The notes under the pieces were generated by a model. It was not told the origin of the DNA. It saw only the letters and a program-made list of their open reading frames with translations, and did not search any database. DNA of 64,000 nucleotides from Candidatus Levyibacteriota bacterium (GTDB lineage Bacteria > Patescibacteriota > Microgenomatia > Levybacterales > UBA12049), in contig JACPGP010000016.1 of assembly GCA_016182425.1 (NCBI GenBank), positions 9,353-73,352 of the forward strand. Direction: 5' to 3'. Positions within the stretch are counted from its first letter, which is position 1. The number at the start of each line of letters is the position of its first letter. Below, piece after piece: positions 8,378 to 64,000 of this stretch. The position numbers and the translations under genes are program-made.

Positions 8378-8384
8378 ATTTTTG

Positions 8385-8756
8385 TGGAGATGTCCGAGAA
8401 TGACTCGGAGTCCAAGAACTAGATTAAAAAACTTCTACAAGCATAGTCGATTTTTAAGAGTCACTTTATTCTTTGCCAATCGACAGGTATGAATAAAATC
8501 AAGGTTTAATAAATAAAATAAGGACAAAAACCAATCTTCCTTACCATTTCTCAACTGTATTTTTGCTCATACCATCCCGTTGAGAAAGAGGATATGAACA
8601 GGCTTAGTTAAGGTATGCTCTTTGAGGAGCATACGCATAAGCTAGACCGCTAAAGGGGTTAACCTTAGCATTTATATTTGATTCTGTTTTACGACTAGTT
8701 ATCAAAGTCGGCTTGCAGCTTTTTAACGTGCATTCTTGTCGATGCAATGCATCCCC
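8385..8756 (-). ncRNA. ssrA: tmRNA (SsrA)
   Basis: Read on the minus strand. The 5' GGGGAUG pairs with the 3' CAUCUCC-A and includes a G3:U70 wobble. An AUCGAC element follows the 5' strand. CGUUAAAAAGCUGCAA...CUAGUCG resembles the E. coli pre-tag region. GGAC precedes the T-arm UCCGA/UCGGA. Length is about 372 nt, the gene is convergent with smpB, and a consensus promoter lies upstream. Confidence 0.85.
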
Positions 8757-9427: not shown

Positions 9428-9451
9428 ATAAATAGTGTAGCAAAAAGAGGG

Positions 9452-9537
9452 CGGAGAGGGTGGGATTCGAACCCACGTGAGCTTGCGCCCAATTGGTTTT
9501 CAAGACCAACGCCGTACGACCACTTGGCTACCTCTCC
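9452..9537 (-). tRNA. tRNA-Ser (anticodon UGA)
   Basis: Cloverleaf folded by hand. Acceptor is GGAGAGG/CCTCTCC, anticodon loop CTTGAAA, T-arm GTGGG-TTCGAAT-CCCAC, with a long variable arm. Confidence 0.9.
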
Positions 9538-9580
9538 AAGTGTTCCAAGTATAACAAATTGAGGCTAACACTACAAGAAA

Positions 9581-10301: not shown

Positions 10302-10385
10302 GGAGGGTGACTCAGACGGTAACGAGAATGGTTTGCTAAACCATGACCCGTAAGGGTCCAGTGGGTTCGACTCCCACACCCTCCG
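10302..10385 (+). tRNA. tRNA-Ser (anticodon GCU)
   Basis: Acceptor is GGAGGGT/ACCCTCC and the anticodon arm is ATGGT-TTGCTAA-ACCAT. The variable arm is GACCCGTAAGGGTCC and the T-arm GTGGG-TTCGACT-CCCAC. Confidence 0.85.
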
Positions 10386-10388
10386 CAG

Positions 10389-13247: not shown

Positions 13248-13322
13248 GCACCCATAGCTCAACGGATAGAGTAGCGGCTTGCGGAGCCGTTGATCCCAGT
13301 TCGATTCTGGGTGGGTGCGCCA
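13248..13322 (+). tRNA. tRNA-Arg (anticodon GCG), CCA encoded
   Basis: Hand fold: GCACCCA-TA-GCTC-AACGGATA-GAGT-A-GCGGC-TTGCGGA-GCCGT-TGAT-CCCAG-TTCGATT-CTGGG-TGGGTGC-G-CCA. Confidence 0.85.
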
Positions 13323-13326
13323 AAAA

Positions 13327-13413
13327 GGAGGAGTGCAAGAGAGGCTTATTTGGCCGGTCTCGAAAACCGAGCGAGTCGCAAGATTCACAGAGGTTCGAAT
13401 CCTCTCTCCTCCG
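13327..13413 (+). tRNA. tRNA-Ser (anticodon CGA)
   Basis: Acceptor is GGAGGAG/CTCCTCC and the anticodon loop is CTCGAAA. The variable arm is GAGTC-GCAA-GATTC and the T-arm AGAGG-TTCGAAT-CCTCT. Confidence 0.85.
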
Positions 13414-13419
13414 CAATTA

Positions 13420-13491
13420 GTCCTCGTAGTTCAATGGATAAAACAAAAGCTTCCGGAGCTTTAGTTGCGGGTTCGACTCCCGCCGAGGACG
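13420..13491 (+). tRNA. tRNA-Arg (anticodon CCG)
   Basis: Acceptor is GTCCTCG/CGAGGAC, the anticodon arm AAAGC-TTCCGGA-GCTTT and the T-arm GCGGG-TTCGACT-CCCGC. Confidence 0.85.
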
Positions 13492-13494
13492 CTT

Positions 13495-13926
13495 ATGAAA
13501 TTTGAGTTTTCAGCTGGTGGCATAGTCCTTCGACAAGCTCAGGATAAAAAAATTGAGATACTTGTCGCGCAGCACTCGCAGCACCATGGCTGGGTTTTCC
13601 CAAAAGGCTTAATTGGTGACAGTGGCAAAAAAGAAACAAAAGAAGAAACAGCGGTAAGGGAAGTGCAGGAAGAAACAGGGGTATGGGCAAAAATTATAAA
13701 GCCATTAACGCCAATTTCATACTGGTACCAGTTTGAAGGTCAAAAAATTAAAAAAACCGTGTATTATTTTATTATGGAGTATGTCTCTGGCGATATAAAA
13801 GACCACGACTGGGAAATGGAAAATGTCGAATGGCTGCCAATTGAAGAAGTTGAAAAAAGGTTGACTTACTCGTCTGATAAACAAGTATGGCAAGAGGCAA
13901 AAAAGTTACTAGGAGAGGTCGCATAG
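13495..13926 (+). CDS. NUDIX hydrolase
   Basis: NUDIX box GWVFPKGLIGDSGKKETKEETAVREVQEETG. The start is taken at MKFEFSAGG (13495) because the track start at 13465 lies inside tRNA-Arg. Confidence 0.9.
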   Translation: MKFEFSAGGIVLRQAQDKKIEILVAQHSQHHGWVFPKGLIGDSGKKETKEETAVREVQEETGVWAKIIKPLTPISYWYQFEGQKIKKTVYYFIMEYVSGDIKDHDWEMENVEWLPIEEVEKRLTYSSDKQVWQEAKKLLGEVA

Positions 13927-13999
13927 TTGGTCTAGTGCGCAGCTTTGGAAAAGCTGTATATCCGCAAGGATATCGGGAGTTCGAATCTCCCCCTCTCCG
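13912..13999 (+). tRNA. tRNA-Ser (anticodon GGA)
   Basis: Acceptor is GGAGAGG/CCTCTCC, the anticodon arm CAGCT-TTGGAAA-AGCTG and the T-arm GGGAG-TTCGAAT-CTCCC. The first 15 nt overlap the NUDIX 3' end. Confidence 0.85.
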
Positions 14000-14076
14000 C
14001 AGCGTAAGAAATTTTTTAAAATTTCAACAAATCTAATAAATGGGTGTTCCGATGGAAGGTTTGGTAAAATAATTCT

Positions 14077-17149: not shown

Positions 17150-20100
17150 TTACGCTGCTTTCTTCAATTGTTCTAACTGCTCGTTAAGCATCATATAAAT
17201 AAATGCGGCGATAAGCATAGGAATCAACGATCTACTCATCGCCAATCCAAGGTGGTACCATTCAGCGCCCAATCGTTTCTTTAACTTTTCGTATTGGTGT
17301 TCATTCACAATTCCTGCCGCGTGCACTTCATGCAGAAATGCCTGTATATCCAGCTCGTCCCAGGCCATTTGCCCTCTTCCAAAGGCAACCTGGGCGTATG
17401 AAGCATCTCCAGAAACAAAACCATGAAACTTTCCTATGCCAAGCGGTAGTCTTCCCACCCAATCTTTTTTGTAAAACTTCGCCACGCCTTCTGCTAGATA
17501 CCGCATTGCTTCGCTAGCCACATCTTTGTCGTGTCCGGAGAGTGTGCTATGCATCTCCTTCATTGCCTTAACAATATCGCCCTGGCTTTTATACTCGGTT
17601 AAATTTTGAATAAACTTACCATACAGCCCGGCAGTGGCAACAACAGGCCCAATATCCGCATCCCAACGTCTCTTTATGGTATCGCCGGTAATAGCAGCAT
17701 AATCAAATGCCTCGTGCGGCATATCATCTGTGCCAAAGATAAAGGGTACTTTCCACCCTTTATGCTCAAGGTTATGCATTAACTTATCCATATGTTTTTC
17801 CTTAAACTCACCACGAATATGTTCTGCTAGTGCCTTAACTCGTTCCTCTTGTTCTTGTTGATGGCGATATTCTTCTGTGCCAACAGCTGCGGTCTTTAAT
17901 AAAGCAAAATCTTGGTTTTCAAGTCCTGTGGGAAAATGCAAATTCTCAATTTGCTCTGGAGGCTTTGGTTGTGGTCTGTCTTTTTCCTTTACTTCTCCCC
18001 GCGCAAGACGTTCGTTAAATTCGCGCAGACGTTCGTTAAAATTACGAAGTTCATCACTATCTAGATATTTTTTGTATGCATCAATGCGTCTTCGCAACAA
18101 GCGTTCCTGCACCAGAGCCAAGGCAGCTAAATCATGTTGTAATTCTTTACTTGTAATAATAATTTGTCCGGGAGAATCAGCTTCTTCTTTAATTTGATCT
18201 TTATAATGTTTTCTAAGCACGCCTTGGCGTAAACTGATAAGGTTGTTAAAAAATTTAAGCGGCGTTGTTTTTTCGGCTACTCCAATGGCACTACGAATAA
18301 CTTGTTCAGCTTGTTGCGCCTTGTTCTTATCATCACCAACTAATTCTCCTCTTTTTGCTTCAATCAAAAGCCCAACACCTATCAAAGGATTATTCTCATC
18401 ATATTGCAATAATCGGGCAGTGGCGCTGGCCAGGGTAACCTTATCACCTTTCCATCGCCAACCGGTCTGGGTAAAGATTGAGCCAATATGAAACGGGTTT
18501 TTCATCTGACCAAGCACATCATCTCCCCTATCGTTTACCAAAATATCAAGAATTTCCGATGAAGACATGGCCTTAAACCGTTTTAGCTCCTCTGTCGACC
18601 AAGGACCCCTGTTTCCCTCCAATTTATATCCAAGTATGGCATTTTGCCGTCCTCCCACGTCAAAACGCACTATCTGCTCGAAAAAGGCGATATTTTTTAC
18701 CAAGCCGTTGGCCCACCAGCTGTTTAAGGGGACATTTTTGGTGATGCCGTGCATGGCGGCAATTTCAAAAAACCGCGCCGTGACAATACCCATGCCCCGG
18801 GCAAGCGATATGGCCCGCTTTATCTCCCACTCATCCATGTCTTTTGGCAACACCCCCATGGCTTTTGCCTTTGTGGCCATATCCAACACCAGTTGCTCAA
18901 CCTCACCATATGTCCCATCCGGATTATTAACCATTGCTCTGGCCGGAAGATAACCGCCGTTTTTTGCCACCACCTCCAGCATGGCCTGCTCGTAAAGGCG
19001 CAGCATTGACGCAGTACCCCTTTTGCTAAACGCAATGTGGGCTTCCTCTCCGGCAAAGCGGCTGGCTGCTTTAATAATATCCTCTGCGCCAAAATTCCTG
19101 TTGACATAGTAGGTGATGGTATGAAGGTATTCTCTAAGCGTTTGCTCCCTATTTAACATTCTTTCTATCCGCCGCACCTTTTCCTGCTGATCTGGAGTTA
19201 ATAAATTACCTGACGGCAAAATCTTGTTTTCCGCCGCACGTGCCAACACATTATGGAAATCTCTAATCTCCATATCTCCTCCCGGGCCAATGGCTTCCCG
19301 CCATTCGTGGTCCGAATCCACATCTGCATATTTGAAAAGCCTGCTAAATTCTTTCTCCACTTCTTGCCATTTTCTCCATCCTTCAGTCCCCTCTGCTGCA
19401 TCGGGATCCGCGGCTAAAACGTTATCTATAAGCTGTTTTTGCTGATCTCTTCCCATGCGAATTTCACCGTACAGACCGGGGTGGAGAATTGATGAATCCG
19501 TATCCATCTGCGAACGAAGGGCTTCTTTTAACCATTGTGCTTTTGACAAGAGTTTCTGGGCTTGAGCTGCCTGTTCGTCTGCACCGCCCGCAATGCGAGA
19601 CAATTCATCAATGTACTCATTTAGACGACTACTATTTACCTCTGTCTCTGTTCTTAGATCTGTGTTTGGACTGGTTAATTCTCTGCTTAGCCGGTCTGCA
19701 ATATCACGGACTCCTCCTGTATATGTATTTTGCTCAAGATCAAAATCAGCAAGCGTTTGAGACTTAAAGTATGTCAGCTCCTGCGGCAGCTCATTTCTGC
19801 CCATTCTTTGATCTGCTTCTCTTCTCCTTCTATCACCCCCTTCTCTTCTTTCCTGCTCTGCTTGCCGCGCCGTTTCTTCTTCTCTTATCTGTCTTCTTAC
19901 CACTACCAACCGCTCGGTTACTCTTTCCAAAAGCTGTTCTTGCTGGGCTTGATCAACACCGGTCAGAGAACTTACGCTTCTTCGAAGCTCCTCTAAAATT
20001 TGTAATTGTTCTTGGAAATTGCCATCCGGAATATCCTCCAGCAATCTATTCGCAGTTCGCTCTTGCAGCCGCAGTTGAAAATCGGTAATACCTGTCTCTG

Positions 20101-20758
20101 GTATCCTTGGTGCTTCTCCACTCATGGGGAAAATGCCGTGTTCAATCATCATCTGCTGGGTTCTTCTCTCGTCAAGGGATAAGGTTTTCCCTTTATTTAC
20201 CTCTTCCCAAGCCTTTCTGAGCGGATCGTTTTCTTGTGATATACCCCCGAGAAGTTTTATGTAGAAACGAAGTGCCTCGTCGCCTATTTTTTCGTACAAC
20301 TCATCAACCAAAAAATATTCATACTCTCGTACTAAATCCCTTAGTCCCTTATCAGCTCCTTCTCTATGAAGCTCGTAGCCAAGAACAAACATCTCTTCTG
20401 CCGCTTTTTTAAGCTCGCCTTCATTCCAACTCTCAATTGGTTTCTCTTTTGCTTTCTTTTGAAAGGCCTCTATTTTTGCTCTTTGCTGACTGTTTGCTTC
20501 CTCTAAAATCTCTTTCTGCTGCAATCTGCTACCGATAAATTCTTTCCTCTGTTTTTTGGCGGCTGCTTCTTTCTTACTTCGTTCTTCTTGTTTTTCTTCT
20601 TCTGTTTGTGGCTTTCCGCCTTTTTTACCTGCGGCAGGTATTTGATGTGATTTGAGTATTTCTGGACTTGCTACTGTACCATCTGGCATAAAAATACCTC
20701 CATCTCCATGGTACGCGGTTCGTGGTTGTATTGTCAATCGAACTTCCTGCTCTTTCAT
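17150..20758 (-). CDS. Very large (1202 aa) Glu/Arg/Gln-rich coiled-coil protein with a single C-terminal TM helix; function unknown
   Basis: The ORF is uninterrupted and has no N-terminal signal. The C-terminus reads LGLAMSRSLIPMLIAAFIYMML. It is GC-richer than its surroundings (58% in the line at 18961). Confidence 0.7.
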   Translation of the reverse strand: MKEQEVRLTIQPRTAYHGDGGIFMPDGTVASPEILKSHQIPAAGKKGGKPQTEEEKQEERSKKEAAAKKQRKEFIGSRLQQKEILEEANSQQRAKIEAFQKKAKEKPIESWNEGELKKAAEEMFVLGYELHREGADKGLRDLVREYEYFLVDELYEKIGDEALRFYIKLLGGISQENDPLRKAWEEVNKGKTLSLDERRTQQMMIEHGIFPMSGEAPRIPETGITDFQLRLQERTANRLLEDIPDGNFQEQLQILEELRRSVSSLTGVDQAQQEQLLERVTERLVVVRRQIREEETARQAEQERREGGDRRRREADQRMGRNELPQELTYFKSQTLADFDLEQNTYTGGVRDIADRLSRELTSPNTDLRTETEVNSSRLNEYIDELSRIAGGADEQAAQAQKLLSKAQWLKEALRSQMDTDSSILHPGLYGEIRMGRDQQKQLIDNVLAADPDAAEGTEGWRKWQEVEKEFSRLFKYADVDSDHEWREAIGPGGDMEIRDFHNVLARAAENKILPSGNLLTPDQQEKVRRIERMLNREQTLREYLHTITYYVNRNFGAEDIIKAASRFAGEEAHIAFSKRGTASMLRLYEQAMLEVVAKNGGYLPARAMVNNPDGTYGEVEQLVLDMATKAKAMGVLPKDMDEWEIKRAISLARGMGIVTARFFEIAAMHGITKNVPLNSWWANGLVKNIAFFEQIVRFDVGGRQNAILGYKLEGNRGPWSTEELKRFKAMSSSEILDILVNDRGDDVLGQMKNPFHIGSIFTQTGWRWKGDKVTLASATARLLQYDENNPLIGVGLLIEAKRGELVGDDKNKAQQAEQVIRSAIGVAEKTTPLKFFNNLISLRQGVLRKHYKDQIKEEADSPGQIIITSKELQHDLAALALVQERLLRRRIDAYKKYLDSDELRNFNERLREFNERLARGEVKEKDRPQPKPPEQIENLHFPTGLENQDFALLKTAAVGTEEYRHQQEQEERVKALAEHIRGEFKEKHMDKLMHNLEHKGWKVPFIFGTDDMPHEAFDYAAITGDTIKRRWDADIGPVVATAGLYGKFIQNLTEYKSQGDIVKAMKEMHSTLSGHDKDVASEAMRYLAEGVAKFYKKDWVGRLPLGIGKFHGFVSGDASYAQVAFGRGQMAWDELDIQAFLHEVHAAGIVNEHQYEKLKKRLGAEWYHLGLAMSRSLIPMLIAAFIYMMLNEQLEQLKKAA

Positions 20759-61520: not shown

Positions 61521-61564
61521 AAAGATTAGTATAGCATATTTAGGTGGTATAATCTACTTATGTT

Positions 61565-62062
61565 ATGGTTGTTTTAGGAATTGATCCGGGGATTGGAAGA
61601 ATGGGGTGGGGAGCTATAATAGTGCAAAGTTCAAAGTGCAAAGTTCAAAGCTGCGGATGCATTGAAACGGCGGCGAAGTTAAGGACCGAAGAACGGTTGC
61701 TGCAAATTTATCAAGACCTCACAAAGATTATAAAAGAATATCAGCCGGATGTATTGGCAATTGAGGAGCTTTTTTTTGGCGCAAATGCCAAGACAGCCTT
61801 AGTTGTTGGTCAGGCGCGAGGAGTTGCGCTTTTGGTTGCAGGACAAAATAAATTACCTATTGCAGTCTACACACCGCTTCAAGTAAAAGTTGCCTTAACT
61901 GGGTATGGAAGAGCAGAAAAAAATCAAATTGGGCAGATGGTCAAAGTATTACTCAAGCTTTCATCAATCCCAAAACCAGATGATACAGCAGATGCCCTAG
62001 CTGTTGCCCTCACCCACGCATTTTCGAGAAAATACGGCGTTTTGACAAGCAAGAAAAGATAG
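61565..62062 (+). CDS. ruvC: Holliday junction resolvase RuvC
   Basis: VLGIDPGIGRMGWG...LAIEELFF...GQARG...PDDTADALAVALTH. Confidence 0.9.
   Translation: MVVLGIDPGIGRMGWGAIIVQSSKCKVQSCGCIETAAKLRTEERLLQIYQDLTKIIKEYQPDVLAIEELFFGANAKTALVVGQARGVALLVAGQNKLPIAVYTPLQVKVALTGYGRAEKNQIGQMVKVLLKLSSIPKPDDTADALAVALTHAFSRKYGVLTSKKR
61622..61649 (+). repeat. Heptanucleotide array (GTGCAAA GTTCAAA)x2 inside ruvC
   Basis: Read directly. It is 28 nt long and encodes VQSSKCKVQS in the first beta-hairpin. Confidence 0.9.
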
Positions 62063-62079
62063 ACTACAATGCACTTGTT

Positions 62080-62301
62080 ATGAAAAAGATACAACAAACG
62101 TTACAAAGCAGTATCGAACAAGAAACCCTCTTTAGAAATTGGGAAAAATATAGAGGGAGCATTGTTATGGTGGTGGGCAACGAAGTTTTTTCGACAAAAC
62201 GAGCAAAAAATGTTGATAAAATGCTTATGGAGATAGAAGACAAATACCATAAACAACCACTCATTACCTATATTCCAAAAGAAGGAACCCTTATTCTTTA
62301 G
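62080..62301 (+). CDS. Small DUF5678-like protein
   Basis: WEKYRGSIVMVVGNEVFSTKRAKNVDKMLMEIEDKYHKQPLITYIPKEGTLIL resembles DUF5678 as I recall it. The call is low certainty. Confidence 0.45.
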   Translation: MKKIQQTLQSSIEQETLFRNWEKYRGSIVMVVGNEVFSTKRAKNVDKMLMEIEDKYHKQPLITYIPKEGTLIL

Positions 62302-62304
62302 TAT

Positions 62305-62715
62305 ATGGCTATATCCTTTCCATTTAAGGAGGAGCACTCGCCGATATTTGGCAAAATTCGTCGCCCAGTAGCAGAAGTTTACTTTAAGCATACAAATATT
62401 GCTATTTGGCGAAAAGCAACAATGATCGTTGATACAGGAGCAGATTACACGCTTTTACCGCATTTCTTCGCTTCGACATTAGGTATTGCTGTTACAAAAG
62501 ATTGCCGAGTTATTGATACACAAGGAGTGGGAGGAAAAAGCAGGGTGTATCTTGTAAAAGAAAAAATGCATGTAAAAATTGGGGAGTTTGAGCGGAAAAT
62601 TCCGTTGGGATTTCTCGCTAACGATTACATTCCGCCTCTTTTAGGAAGACAGGAATTCTTTGAGACATTTCGAGTGGTGTTTGAAAAATTCTCTCCCACC
62701 TTTGAGGAGACATAG
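62305..62715 (+). CDS. Retropepsin-like (clan AA) aspartic protease
   Basis: ATMIVDTGADYTLLP carries the D-T-G-A active-site motif, and ...PPLLGRQEFFETFRVVFE is present. Confidence 0.75.
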   Translation: MAISFPFKEEHSPIFGKIRRPVAEVYFKHTNIAIWRKATMIVDTGADYTLLPHFFASTLGIAVTKDCRVIDTQGVGGKSRVYLVKEKMHVKIGEFERKIPLGFLANDYIPPLLGRQEFFETFRVVFEKFSPTFEET

Positions 62716-62755
62716 CCCATGCACTTTCCTAGAAGCTCAAAAATACCCCATAATA

Positions 62756-62784
62756 TTGACTTATACTTCATTTTCTGTTAGGAT
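62756..62784 (+). promoter_or_regulatory. Orphan promoter in the ruvC-ruvA insertion
   Basis: TTGACT (62756-62761), a 17-nt spacer, TAGGAT (62779-62784). This is the same hexamer pair as the promoter at 12659. A TTG lies 6 nt downstream, at 62791. Confidence 0.45.
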
Positions 62785-62878
62785 AGGATATTGCAGATAG
62801 ATAAATCCAGGCGTATTTTGCTGCCTGTTTACCCTGAGCATTGTCGAAGGGTTTTTTGTCTTTTTGTATTTTATTTTT

Positions 62879-62922
62879 GCCCGCCTGCAGCGCTTTATTG
62901 CGCAGCAATTAACGGGCAGGCA
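62879..62922. repeat. Second copy of the GC-rich palindromic mini-element
   Basis: GCCCGCCTGCAGCGCTTTATTGCGCAGCAATTAACGGGCAGGCA shares its termini with 38747-38781 but has a different interior. Confidence 0.7.
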
Positions 62923-63017
62923 CGTTGATAAGTTGCGGAAAGTTTAAGTGGATGCTACTTTGGATATCTTAAGAAAGGTATGTAGAGTGGTGTCCACTTA
63001 GCGAAAAGGAGGTCATA

Positions 63018-63197
63018 GTGTCTACCCCTGATCTGATAGCCATTGAAAAGGTTCTTGCAGAGAGCCTTAGAGGAGGAGGTGGTTCAGTTGCTGTACAGGC
63101 AATAGCTATCCTGCTCAAAGCGCTCGATGAGCTGGCAAGACAAGCACAGCTGATCAAGGAAGAACTGCAATCGGCAAAAGCGGCTGCTTCACAATAA
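63018..63197 (+). CDS. Small helical protein (59 aa) of the GC-rich island
   Basis: My own translation; the ORF is below the track cutoff. It starts at GTG 63018, 5 nt after AAGGAGG (63006-63012). It reads VSTPDLIAIEKVLAESLRGGGGSVAVQAIAILLKALDELARQAQLIKEELQSAKAAASQ. Confidence 0.55.
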   Translation: MSTPDLIAIEKVLAESLRGGGGSVAVQAIAILLKALDELARQAQLIKEELQSAKAAASQ

Positions 63198-63260
63198 GTA
63201 GAATATTCGCCATGTGTCGTGGCAAGATCCAGCACGTGCTGATATAAACAGGAGTAAATC

Positions 63261-63665
63261 ATGGTTAGCATTCCTCCCTACGAGGTAGAATTCAAGAAGA
63301 TTGATCCGCTCCTGCTCGAGGTAGAAGTACGAATGTTTTTGCCAATCGTGCTACATCTATCGATCATGCCTGGACACCCTATCGGCCTAATGGTAGGCGA
63401 GCTCACGGGTAAAGTGGGGCCAGGAGTTGGCTTCACTAACGGAACCAACAGTGCCCTCAAAGTGAGTATCACCTATGTCAATGGTGACGAGCCGATGGAT
63501 ATTGATCTCTCGCCAAACAGGCTTGAGGTGGTAGGATTTGATCTGCAAGGTGTCGGGCCATTCACGGCGACCTTCTCCGTGGTAAGGAAAAGGCGTGGTC
63601 GTCCTCTGCCGACAATCATTGTACATGTTCGTCCTCCCTTTTTCGGTCCCCCGCGGAACAACTAA
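63261..63665 (+). CDS. Hypothetical 134-aa protein of the GC-rich island
   Basis: ATG is preceded by AGGAG (63250-63254) with a 6-nt spacer. One line counted about 60% GC. No motif recognised. Confidence 0.6.
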   Translation: MVSIPPYEVEFKKIDPLLLEVEVRMFLPIVLHLSIMPGHPIGLMVGELTGKVGPGVGFTNGTNSALKVSITYVNGDEPMDIDLSPNRLEVVGFDLQGVGPFTATFSVVRKRRGRPLPTIIVHVRPPFFGPPRNN

Positions 63666-63672
63666 CTTTCCA

Positions 63673-63764
63673 ACGATCAACGTGCATAATGCACTCCCAC
63701 CCGTAAGGGTTCCAACGAAAGTTGGGTGTTTGGATCGTCACGATTCAAATAGGGGGTGCTTTTT
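63673..63764 (+). terminator. Multi-hairpin RNA element / complex intrinsic terminator candidate
   Basis: ACGATC (63673-63678) and GATCGT (63733-63738) enclose three hairpins: GTGCA-TAA-TGCAC, ACCC-GTAA-GGGT and CCAAC-GAAA-GTTGG. An alternative pairing is GCACTCCC (63691-63698) with GGGGGTGC (63752-63759), followed by TTTTT. Confidence 0.4.
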
Positions 63765-63801
63765 GCTGTTTATGGGGTATGTTATAATCGAGCTACTTTT
63801 T

Positions 63802-64000
63802 ATGATTGCTGCCTTAAAAGGAATAGTAGATAGCATTGATGCTCCATATATTATTGTTGATGTCCAAGGCGTTGGGTATAAAGTTTTGGTGCCAACAACA
63901 TTGCTTTCCTCGGTATCAGCAGGACAAACCATAAAACTGTTTACCTACACTCATGTTCGGGAAGATATTTTAGAGCTTTTTGGTTTTTTGCAGCAACAGG
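63802..64000 (+). CDS. ruvA: Holliday junction helicase subunit RuvA; the N-terminal part continues past the window end
   Basis: My own translation: MIAALKGIVDSIDAPYIIVDVQGVGYKVLVPTTLLSSVSAGQTIKLFTYTHVREDILELFGF. TGTTATAAT (63781-63789) lies upstream. Confidence 0.9.
   Translation, partial: MIAALKGIVDSIDAPYIIVDVQGVGYKVLVPTTLLSSVSAGQTIKLFTYTHVREDILELFGFLQQQ

Follow-up and report, generated by a model that had tools for sequence, protein, structure and literature searches.

The ruvC and ruvA genes of a Candidatus Levyibacteriota bacterium (GenBank assembly GCA_016182425.1) are separated by a gap located towards the end of a 64,000-nucleotide (nt) stretch of contig JACPGP010000016.1, here referred to as the window, and this gap contains a small island rich in guanine and cytosine (GC). 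The island is considered, with better than even confidence, to be a self-contained, clade-specific accessory expression unit (about 62756-63765, + strand) residing in a cargo hotspot between ruvC and ruvA. It is proposed that a near-consensus promoter directs the synthesis of a bicistronic mRNA of ~0.97 kb with a structured leader of ~227 nt, in which a 26-base pair (bp) hairpin would abut the Shine-Dalgarno (SD) sequence of the first gene. The first gene would encode a conserved, all-helical protein of 59-77 amino acids (aa) inherited within the clade, and the second position would act as a slot for unrelated orphan open reading frames (ORFs) with a high GC content at third codon positions (GC3), occupied here by a probably translated 134-aa ORF (ORF134). 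A helix of ~20 bp between a box in the leader and the sequence following the second stop codon would close the coding region into a loop, and a four-helix junction with a U-tract would terminate transcription ahead of the leaderless-type promoter of ruvA. The genomes of the Patescibacteria, or candidate phyla radiation, are small and hold many unannotated genes, of which the unit is a compact and well-delimited example; comparison with relatives separates it into an inherited small protein, a replaceable orphan gene and a conserved RNA architecture.

The gap is bordered on the left by ruvC (61565-62062, + strand; Pfam RuvC, E 9e-50) and on the right by ruvA (+ strand; Pfam RuvA_N, E 4e-22), which starts at 63802 and runs past the end of the window at 64000; the full-length ruvA followed by ruvB is found on L001, a Logan contig that matches the window. 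An earlier reading made from the letters of the window alone (the original prediction) had pointed to 1.7 kb between two genes that are normally adjacent, and in fact 1739 nt separate the two genes, which are neighbours in 50 of the 58 other loci where both were found. It had also described the distal ~0.8 kb (62990-63770) as compositionally distinct from a background of ~30-35% GC. The segment is indeed GC-rich (49.7%, z +2.9 among 781-nt windows, with a peak of 0.53 in 200-nt windows), but the background was set too low as the whole window has 39.8%, and the functional unit extends beyond these borders to about 62756-63765. The GC maximum in 781-nt windows is shared with a stretch at 18.3-18.9 kb. 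The latter (about 49% GC) lies within a 1202-aa orphan ORF without a Pfam domain (17150-20758, - strand) that has a GC3 of 0.40, so that its GC richness is a matter of amino acid composition.

The small helical protein gene (63018-63197, + strand, GTG start, 59 aa) is deposited as MBI2430821.1 at NCBI, where it is annotated as hypothetical in a Candidatus Levybacteria metagenome-assembled genome. Three homologues of 76-77 aa with 52-64% identity are encoded at the same locus on L010, L011 and L012, contigs of three related Levybacteria that were compared with the window. Each follows a partial ruvC whose product is 74-79% identical to RuvC of the window, and in L010 ruvA and ruvB come next. 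Comparison shows that the small ORF is a real gene inherited within the clade, because its substitutions favour third codon positions (0.34, compared with 0.10-0.20 at the first two), an in-frame indel of 51 nt accounts for the difference in length, and its frame alone among the six stays open throughout the four genomes. An antisense ORF of 100 aa (62969-63271) shares its third positions with the small ORF and is open in the window only, and was discarded. The small ORF has a native-like GC3 of 0.37 and owes its GC richness to first codon positions (0.70), since Ala, Gly, Glu, Leu and Gln abound in its product; its synonymous codon choice is somewhat deviant (z -3.3, on 59 codons only). The product had been described as all-helical, which agrees with an AlphaFold2 model of the 76-aa homologue that consists of three helices (predicted local distance difference test, pLDDT, 71); the 59-aa version lacks the segment linking helices 2 and 3. 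The model shows no recognisable DNA-binding fold, a Foldseek search against PDB and BFVD returned nothing below E 2, and a profile search recovered the same four proteins only. Class II bacteriocins carry a double-glycine leader in which positions -4, -7 and -12 relative to the GG are hydrophobic and position -8 is Glu, and are encoded near a C39 ABC exporter. Such a leader was rejected for the small protein because the register does not fit: in an alignment by inspection only Glu at -8 agrees, with Gly/Glu at -4, Asn/Ser at -7 and Lys at -12, and there is no transporter among the called genes of the four loci.

ORF134 (63261-63665, + strand) begins with ATG 6 nt downstream of an SD sequence, AGGAG (63250-63254), and follows the small ORF at a distance of 63 nt. 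A word-indexed search of 5.8 billion clustered proteins retrieved only ORF134 itself, as a singleton cluster with Logan as its only source and no NCBI accession. An exhaustive HMMER search of 1.8 billion representatives added only marginal matches to a pair of giant repeat proteins (E 7e-5 and 5e-4). One of these is a 27-repeat cadherin whose score is summed over 13 near-identical repeats at ~30 bits each at a domain boundary, and this homology is treated as unproven. At meaningful E-values, neither ORF134 nor the small protein could be assigned to a Pfam, NCBIfam, PADLOC or PHROG family, and PDB sequence searches were empty or insignificant. The GC3 of ORF134 is 0.54 compared with 0.33±0.055 for native genes (native maximum 0.46; z +3.8) and its synonymous-codon log-likelihood deviates strongly (z -5.7). 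The codon shift noticed earlier is therefore strong in ORF134, where CTC, GTG and CCG are raised, but does not include GGC or the GC3 of the small ORF. In relatives, the same slot is occupied by an unrelated 108-aa ORF (L010) and by a third unrelated type of 95 aa that is common to L011 and L012. The three types show no mutual similarity, and all of these slot ORFs are SD-led, GC3-rich (0.54-0.63) singleton orphans without Pfam or PHROG matches. The L011 and L012 cassettes (319 nt aligned; 98% identical in the first 85 nt after the small-ORF stop) are more alike than their ruvC genes, which differ at 40% of third positions, and this suggests recent exchange or constraint at the nucleotide level. 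As far as the comparison goes, ORF134 behaves like replaceable cargo with a foreign-looking composition. Diversity-generating retroelement-type variation was set aside, as there is no reverse transcriptase and the substitutions are by inspection not adenine-specific, as was recombination with silent copies, the island being not repeated elsewhere in the window.

ORF134 is probably translated, which is favoured by several features none of which is decisive: the spacing between SD and ATG, its length (P=0.006 against dinucleotide shuffles), a positional composition of the coding type (first codon positions G-rich and T-poor, second positions T-rich), a frame with the best amino acid composition and likelihood of six that compares with real genes, and a TAA stop codon that aligns with that of the L010 slot ORF. 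The alternative is that 63198-63665 is no gene at all and forms part of a long structured non-coding RNA or the 3' untranslated region (UTR) of the small ORF, with ORF134 a by-product of high GC. Such a reading would explain why the whole transcript folds far better than its shuffles (z -5.7), why ORF134 is an orphan without accession for which AlphaFold2, run on this protein alone, gave no confident fold (pLDDT 32, unusable), why its codon usage is atypical, and why ORFs of 62-100 aa also occur on the antisense strand. It is nevertheless unlikely, since in addition to the coding-type features above an SD-led ORF is found in the slot of every relative, the slot ORFs of L011 and L012 differ by an in-frame 9-nt indel, and the segment is not alignable between relatives, unlike what would be expected of a functional non-coding RNA.

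The two ORFs had been proposed to be recent cargo, a small two-gene system from a higher-GC donor or phage. This description suits ORF134, an orphan with atypical codons and unrelated counterparts in its slot, but not the 59-aa ORF, promoter, leader and terminator, which are inherited within the clade. That the 59-aa ORF itself is a recent import is contradicted by its conservation at the same locus in three relatives, and a phage origin found no link in PHROGs, IMG/VR or GenBank phages. Import of the whole 0.8-1 kb island with both ORFs would account for its GC content, for the codon statistics of ORF134 and the weaker deviation of the small ORF, and for a promoter, terminator and GC content of its own, which together match the definition of a moron (PMC3594210). 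However, the 59-aa ORF, leader and terminator are all kept at the locus in relatives whose ruvC, ruvA and ruvB third positions have diverged by 47-55%, and the GC3 of the small ORF is native-like. Searches at the level of protein, DNA and sequence patterns found no phage or plasmid counterpart (no IMG/VR, GenBank phage or plasmid BLAST matches, and PHROG matches all at E of at least 0.02), and the neighbourhood of ruvC, ruvA, ruvB, L25 and toxin-antitoxin (TA) genes includes no phage genes. A recent import of the entire island is accordingly improbable, and for the small ORF and the RNA frame the comparison largely refutes it.

The presence of two SD-led ORFs on the + strand had been read as a further sign of foreignness. 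Both ORFs and their SD sequences are present as described: AAGGAGG (63006-63012) lies 5 nt upstream of the GTG of the small ORF, where it is kept as AAAGGAGG or ATAGGAGA in the homologues, and AGGAG precedes ORF134. The scarcity of SD sequences among native starts is likewise real, as a scan of 58 long ORFs, including the two of the island, gave no SD-like match of at least 4 nt for 46 of them and one of 6-7 nt for only two, both native. A -10 (TATAAT-like) box ends 4-16 nt before the start of 23 of 54 putative native genes, compared with 3.8±1.8 at random positions. The genome thus looks largely leaderless or short-leader, which explains the native scarcity of SD sequences. In such a genome an SD sequence reflects the need of a cistron that is internal or has a long leader and not a foreign origin, and it marks a long-leader mRNA; the two sites are what would be expected of a long-leader bicistronic mRNA. 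The short spacing between -10 box and start codon is visible, for example, at 61545-61564 before ruvC and at 63780-63801 before ruvA.

Transcription of the unit is predicted to start from a sigma-70 promoter (62756-62784, + strand) which a consensus scan identified as TTGACT, a spacer of 17 nt and TAGGAT, with TG upstream of the latter. Its -35 TTGAC and TG-extended -10 are kept in six unit copies from four genomes, as is the initial portion of the leader. All four genomes have such a copy in front of the small ORF, and L010 and L011 have a second one in front of another GC-rich orphan pair. The leader (62791-63017, ~227 nt) has a minimum free energy (MFE) of -87.9 kcal/mol (z -5.3; 0 of 200 shuffles as stable) and includes hairpin A (about 62807-62827) and two hairpins specific to the window. 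These two, at 62831-62852 and 62877-62919, are not present in the three homologues; one (ACCCU...AGGGU) has a long U-rich tract behind it and resembles a weak attenuator, and the other reads GCCCGCCUGCAGCGC...GCGCAGC...CGGGC. The distal leader contains an imperfect hairpin of 26 bp (62944-63001) that ends 4 nt before the SD sequence. In an RNAalifold analysis of four sequences 96% of its cells are paired, against 38-49% with slid partners; seven pairs change on one side only, and G.U is the commonest pair at six of the 26 positions, which fits an RNA of the + strand. A small hairpin, GCCA...TGGC (63207-63225), directly follows the stop codon of the small ORF and is kept in L011 and L012, while its L010 counterpart CCCA...TGGG is by inspection a compensatory change. 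Rfam 15 gave no match in 62716-63801 at E<=10, nor any at E<=1 in the equivalent regions of L010-L012, and a hammerhead or other ribozyme was discarded on this ground. The unit is further bracketed by an inverted repeat, AAAATACCCCATAA / TTATGGGGTATGTT at 62740-62753 and 63770-63783, that co-varies in L012 (ACATACCCTATAA / TTATAGGTATGT, about 1155-1175 and 2093-2111). Its right arm overlaps the extended -10 element of ruvA, and the repeat may represent mirrored promoters or an old insertion scar.

Immediately upstream of the 26-bp hairpin lies an invariant leader box, GCACGTTGATAAGTTGCGGAAAG (62920-62942; motif TTGCGGAAA with GCAC), which is complementary to a 3' box, CTTTCCAACGATCAACGTGC (63667-63686), that occupies the 20 nt directly downstream of the ORF134 stop codon. 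RNAduplex predicts a pairing energy of -25.2 kcal/mol for the two boxes compared with -11.3±2.9 kcal/mol for shuffles, none of 500 being as stable. Equivalent pairings are found in L012 (-20.7 kcal/mol), both L010 units (-18.3 and -16.8) and the first unit of L011 (-26.0), so that a closing helix of ~20 bp is present in all five units whose 3' end is known. The two strands change together (GTTGAT/ATCAAC in the window as opposed to TTAACAGTT/AACTGTTGA in L010), and the non-cognate combination of the window leader with L010 boxes pairs at background level. The closing helix appears in both the MFE and the centroid structure of the 980-nt transcript. The leader box lies about 64-95 nt upstream of the first SD sequence, which the pairing does not mask. 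An alternative hairpin, GUGCAU-A-AUGCAC (63682-63694), shares sequence with the 3' box and also with the 5' strand of P0, the closing helix of the junction described below, and its L010 form, GUGUAU-AG-UACAC, is a compensatory change by inspection. Such a layout could work as a switch, a role inferred from the overlap. The closing helix could be regulatory by allowing processing of the RNase III type, or by way of this hairpin a choice between termination and read-through into ruvAB. More speculatively, the unit could be a so far undescribed kind of RNA-framed gene cassette in which the promoter-leader and the 3' box and junction hold the mRNA in a loop as a riboregulatory device, with the small protein as the constant partner and the frame as a homology platform for the swapping of orphan genes among Levybacteria; this elaboration is given little credence, and if true the device could be either a substrate for RNase III processing or a termination/read-through switch feeding ruvAB.

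The original prediction had the island end in a multi-hairpin RNA element, and this element proves to be conserved in L010 and L012. It consists of a four-helix junction (63691-63759) in which P0 (63691-98 paired with 63752-59) encloses P1, P2 and P3 with GUAA, GAAA and UCA loops, and which is followed by UUUUU up to 63764 (fold z -4.35). Over three copies (the window and two in L010) all 83 cells are paired, with three compensatory pairs and five that vary on one side only and are G.U-compatible, and the loops across copies are of the GNRA and UUCG types. A covariance model of the junction has no matches other than the two copies of L010 and a divergent one in L012 (23 bits, E 5e-4); the latter has the same architecture with different arm sequences and unpaired junction bases. 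Together with its U-tract the junction is probably a branched intrinsic terminator, seen in both relatives whose contigs reach it (L010 and L012), while in the first unit of L011 a simple hairpin terminator takes its place. Six tRNAs are recognised in other parts of the window by ARAGORN, which reports none at 63691-63759. A mimic of a Holliday junction for RuvA was considered and rejected, as the second L010 copy precedes an ATPase gene, the L012 junction is imperfect and the G.U pairs point to RNA. In a literature search, no description of branched bacterial terminators as a class came to light. The ~20-bp helix between leader and 3' end and the four-helix junction upstream of the promoter of ruvA appear to be newly described here, and both are candidate new RNA motifs.

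The position of the unit directly upstream of ruvA, always in the same orientation, and the switch-like overlap of hairpin 63682-63694 with the 3' box and P0 would also be compatible with a regulatory appendage of ruvAB, in which read-through into ruvA would be adjusted by the small protein together with the leader/terminator RNA, in response to DNA damage for instance, and the second ORF would be a passenger. The chances of this explanation are slim, since ruvA has an extended -10 promoter of its own, TGTTATAAT (63780-63788), which ends 13 nt before the ATG and is kept in L010 and L012. In addition, the second units of L010 and L011 carry the same promoter and boxes and precede ATPase or TA genes in place of ruvA, and more distant Levybacteria have no such unit.

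An assembly chimera, in which a GC-rich piece of another organism has been joined in by the assembler, was also raised by the original prediction. The jump in composition at the island would fit such an artefact, as would several short Logan contigs that start or stop within the unit (62758, 62827, 63196, 63241 and 63797). However, the 134-aa product is encoded on 13 Logan contigs, of which nine, from nine different runs in two series (SRR43434xx and SRR121133xx-121134xx), were retrieved and are identical to the window over 0.8-3.9 kb, apart from one at 99.97%. Of these separately assembled contigs, five span from ruvC or further upstream into ruvA, with L001 continuing through ruvB, and the relatives share the same architecture between ruvC and ruvA. 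The continuity of the locus is shown by this comparison, and short of a systematic artefact common to independent assemblies the probability of a chimera is negligible. The ends of the short contigs correspond to module boundaries, namely the start of the unit, the end of the small ORF, the position just before ORF134 and the end of the unit; this could be due to branching of the assembly graph caused by co-existing cassette variants, or to low coverage.

Among eleven close Patescibacteria, ruvC and ruvA are adjacent in six and separated by unrelated inserts in five, including methyltransferase-like, MFS transporter and EEP-like genes and others (labels given by reading the translated ORFs and not by family search). 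Each genome of the clade has different cargo between ruvC and the unit: a DUF5678-like ORF and a retropepsin of normal GC outside the GC-rich unit in the window, an orphan unit with AAA_14/DUF4143 in L010, an orphan unit with Phd-PIN in L011, and PIN with a small partner ORF in L012. The gap between ruvC and ruvA is therefore regarded as a hotspot for accessory genes. The cargo of the window (62080-62715, + strand) consists of a 73-aa ORF (62080-62301; DUF5678 at E 1e-3, below the family cut-off) and a 136-aa retropepsin-like aspartyl protease (62305-62715; Pfam gag-asp_proteas and Asp_protease_2 at E 1e-7, and PADLOC PDC-M08B, a candidate defence family, at E 7e-9). The two form a tight pair with a 4-nt spacer right after ruvC and have a near-consensus promoter of their own, TTGACA-17-TACAAT (62042-62070), that overlaps the ruvC stop codon. 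The second GC-rich orphan units of L010 (428-1744) and L011 (425-1593) also lie directly after ruvC; they share the promoter, the 5' leader and the pairing of leader box and 3' box with the unit studied, and have a different distal leader and other orphan ORFs (113 and 179 aa in L010, 121 and 140 aa in L011). At their 3' ends L010 has the same four-helix junction and L011 a simple terminator. Directly in front of each unit lies a sequence similar to the 3' end of ruvC, stop codon included (AATAGCCTATAAT-like; 62057-62069 and 62742-62754 in the window, about 420-432 and about 2992-3004 in L010), which suggests that the cargo lying between ruvC and the unit came in at this junction or caused its duplication. 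It is tentatively possible that the two proteins of the unit form a conflict-type accessory module, toxin and immunity or defence-like, with one constant and one polymorphic partner, a guess prompted by the neighbourhood and by the constant/polymorphic pattern.

Several points weigh against the interpretation of the island as an accessory expression unit. Neither protein is tied to a function, and the conflict-type idea draws on neighbourhood and pattern only. Promoter, terminator, transcript ends and translation are all predicted from sequence. ORF134 has no homologue, confident fold or NCBI accession, and its atypical codon usage is also what would be expected of a non-coding stretch. The synonymous divergence of the unit, lower than that of its flanks, could reflect a constraint of RNA structure and not exchange. 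Only six units from four genomes are known, which leaves the covariation statistics weak: 24 of 500 shuffles reach the value of the junction, and covariation in the 26-bp hairpin does not exceed the shuffle control. Searches with peptide patterns or exact DNA patterns (junction and leader) found no relatives in GTDB genomes, JGI metagenomes or IMG/VR, and neither nhmmer nor a covariance model turned up another copy in the window or among 80 ruvC loci. The known distribution of the unit is narrow and its wider impact uncertain.

The closest parallels are phage morons, autonomous transcription units with their own promoter and terminator and a different GC content that are found between genes adjacent in relatives (PMC3594210). 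Like morons, the unit has its own predicted promoter (62756-62784) and terminator (63691-63764), differs in GC content (49.7% against 39.8%, with a GC3 of 0.54 in ORF134 and a native-like one in the small ORF), is located between genes that are adjacent in most relatives and has cargo that is apparently exchanged horizontally. Unlike morons, it is part of a bacterial chromosome, lacks phage genes in its vicinity and gave no match in phage databases, and only its second ORF looks imported, the frame and first ORF being clade-inherited. To our knowledge, morons have neither a long structured leader nor a closing helix between 5' and 3' ends. Pairing of the two UTRs is known from mRNAs of the Staphylococcus aureus icaR type, in which the 3' UTR pairs with the SD sequence itself, and RNase III processing stems bracket rRNAs. 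As in these systems, the ~20-bp helix of the unit joins the flanks of the coding region into a loop in silico and would be a plausible substrate for a double-strand-specific RNase; unlike the icaR type, its partner box lies upstream of the SD sequence without masking it. With TA and defence islets the unit shares a small two-gene co-oriented operon, 63 nt between the genes, with a single predicted promoter and terminator, a gap that in the four genomes also holds Phd-PIN, PIN, AAA_14/DUF4143 and a PDC-M08B-like retropepsin, and one constant next to one polymorphic partner; it differs in that none of the toxin, antitoxin and defence families of Pfam, NCBIfam, PADLOC and PHROGs matches either protein. 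Integron gene cassettes are promoterless ORFs with an attC site next to intI/attI. This identity was rejected as each unit has its own promoter and there is no integrase among the called genes of the loci, and an attC-type DNA hairpin was rejected because the 3' structure, with its G.U pairs, is one of + strand RNA. Cloverleaf or four-way-junction RNAs include tRNA-like 3' elements such as mascRNA and the enterovirus 5' cloverleaf (PMC10082201, PMC11693755). The junction of the unit resembles them in having three hairpins closed by a fourth helix, with stable GNRA/UUCG loops and no unpaired junction nucleotides in three copies. It departs from them in having tetraloops in place of 7-nt loops, no CCA end and a U-tract directly after the junction, in being bacterial and in not being recognised by ARAGORN or Rfam.

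Other features of the window are ordinary. They include a transfer-messenger RNA gene at 8382-8756 (Rfam, 106 bits), a cluster of four tRNA genes (Arg, Ser, Arg, Ser) at 13248-14000, and further tRNA-Ser genes at 9449-9538 and 10302-10386.

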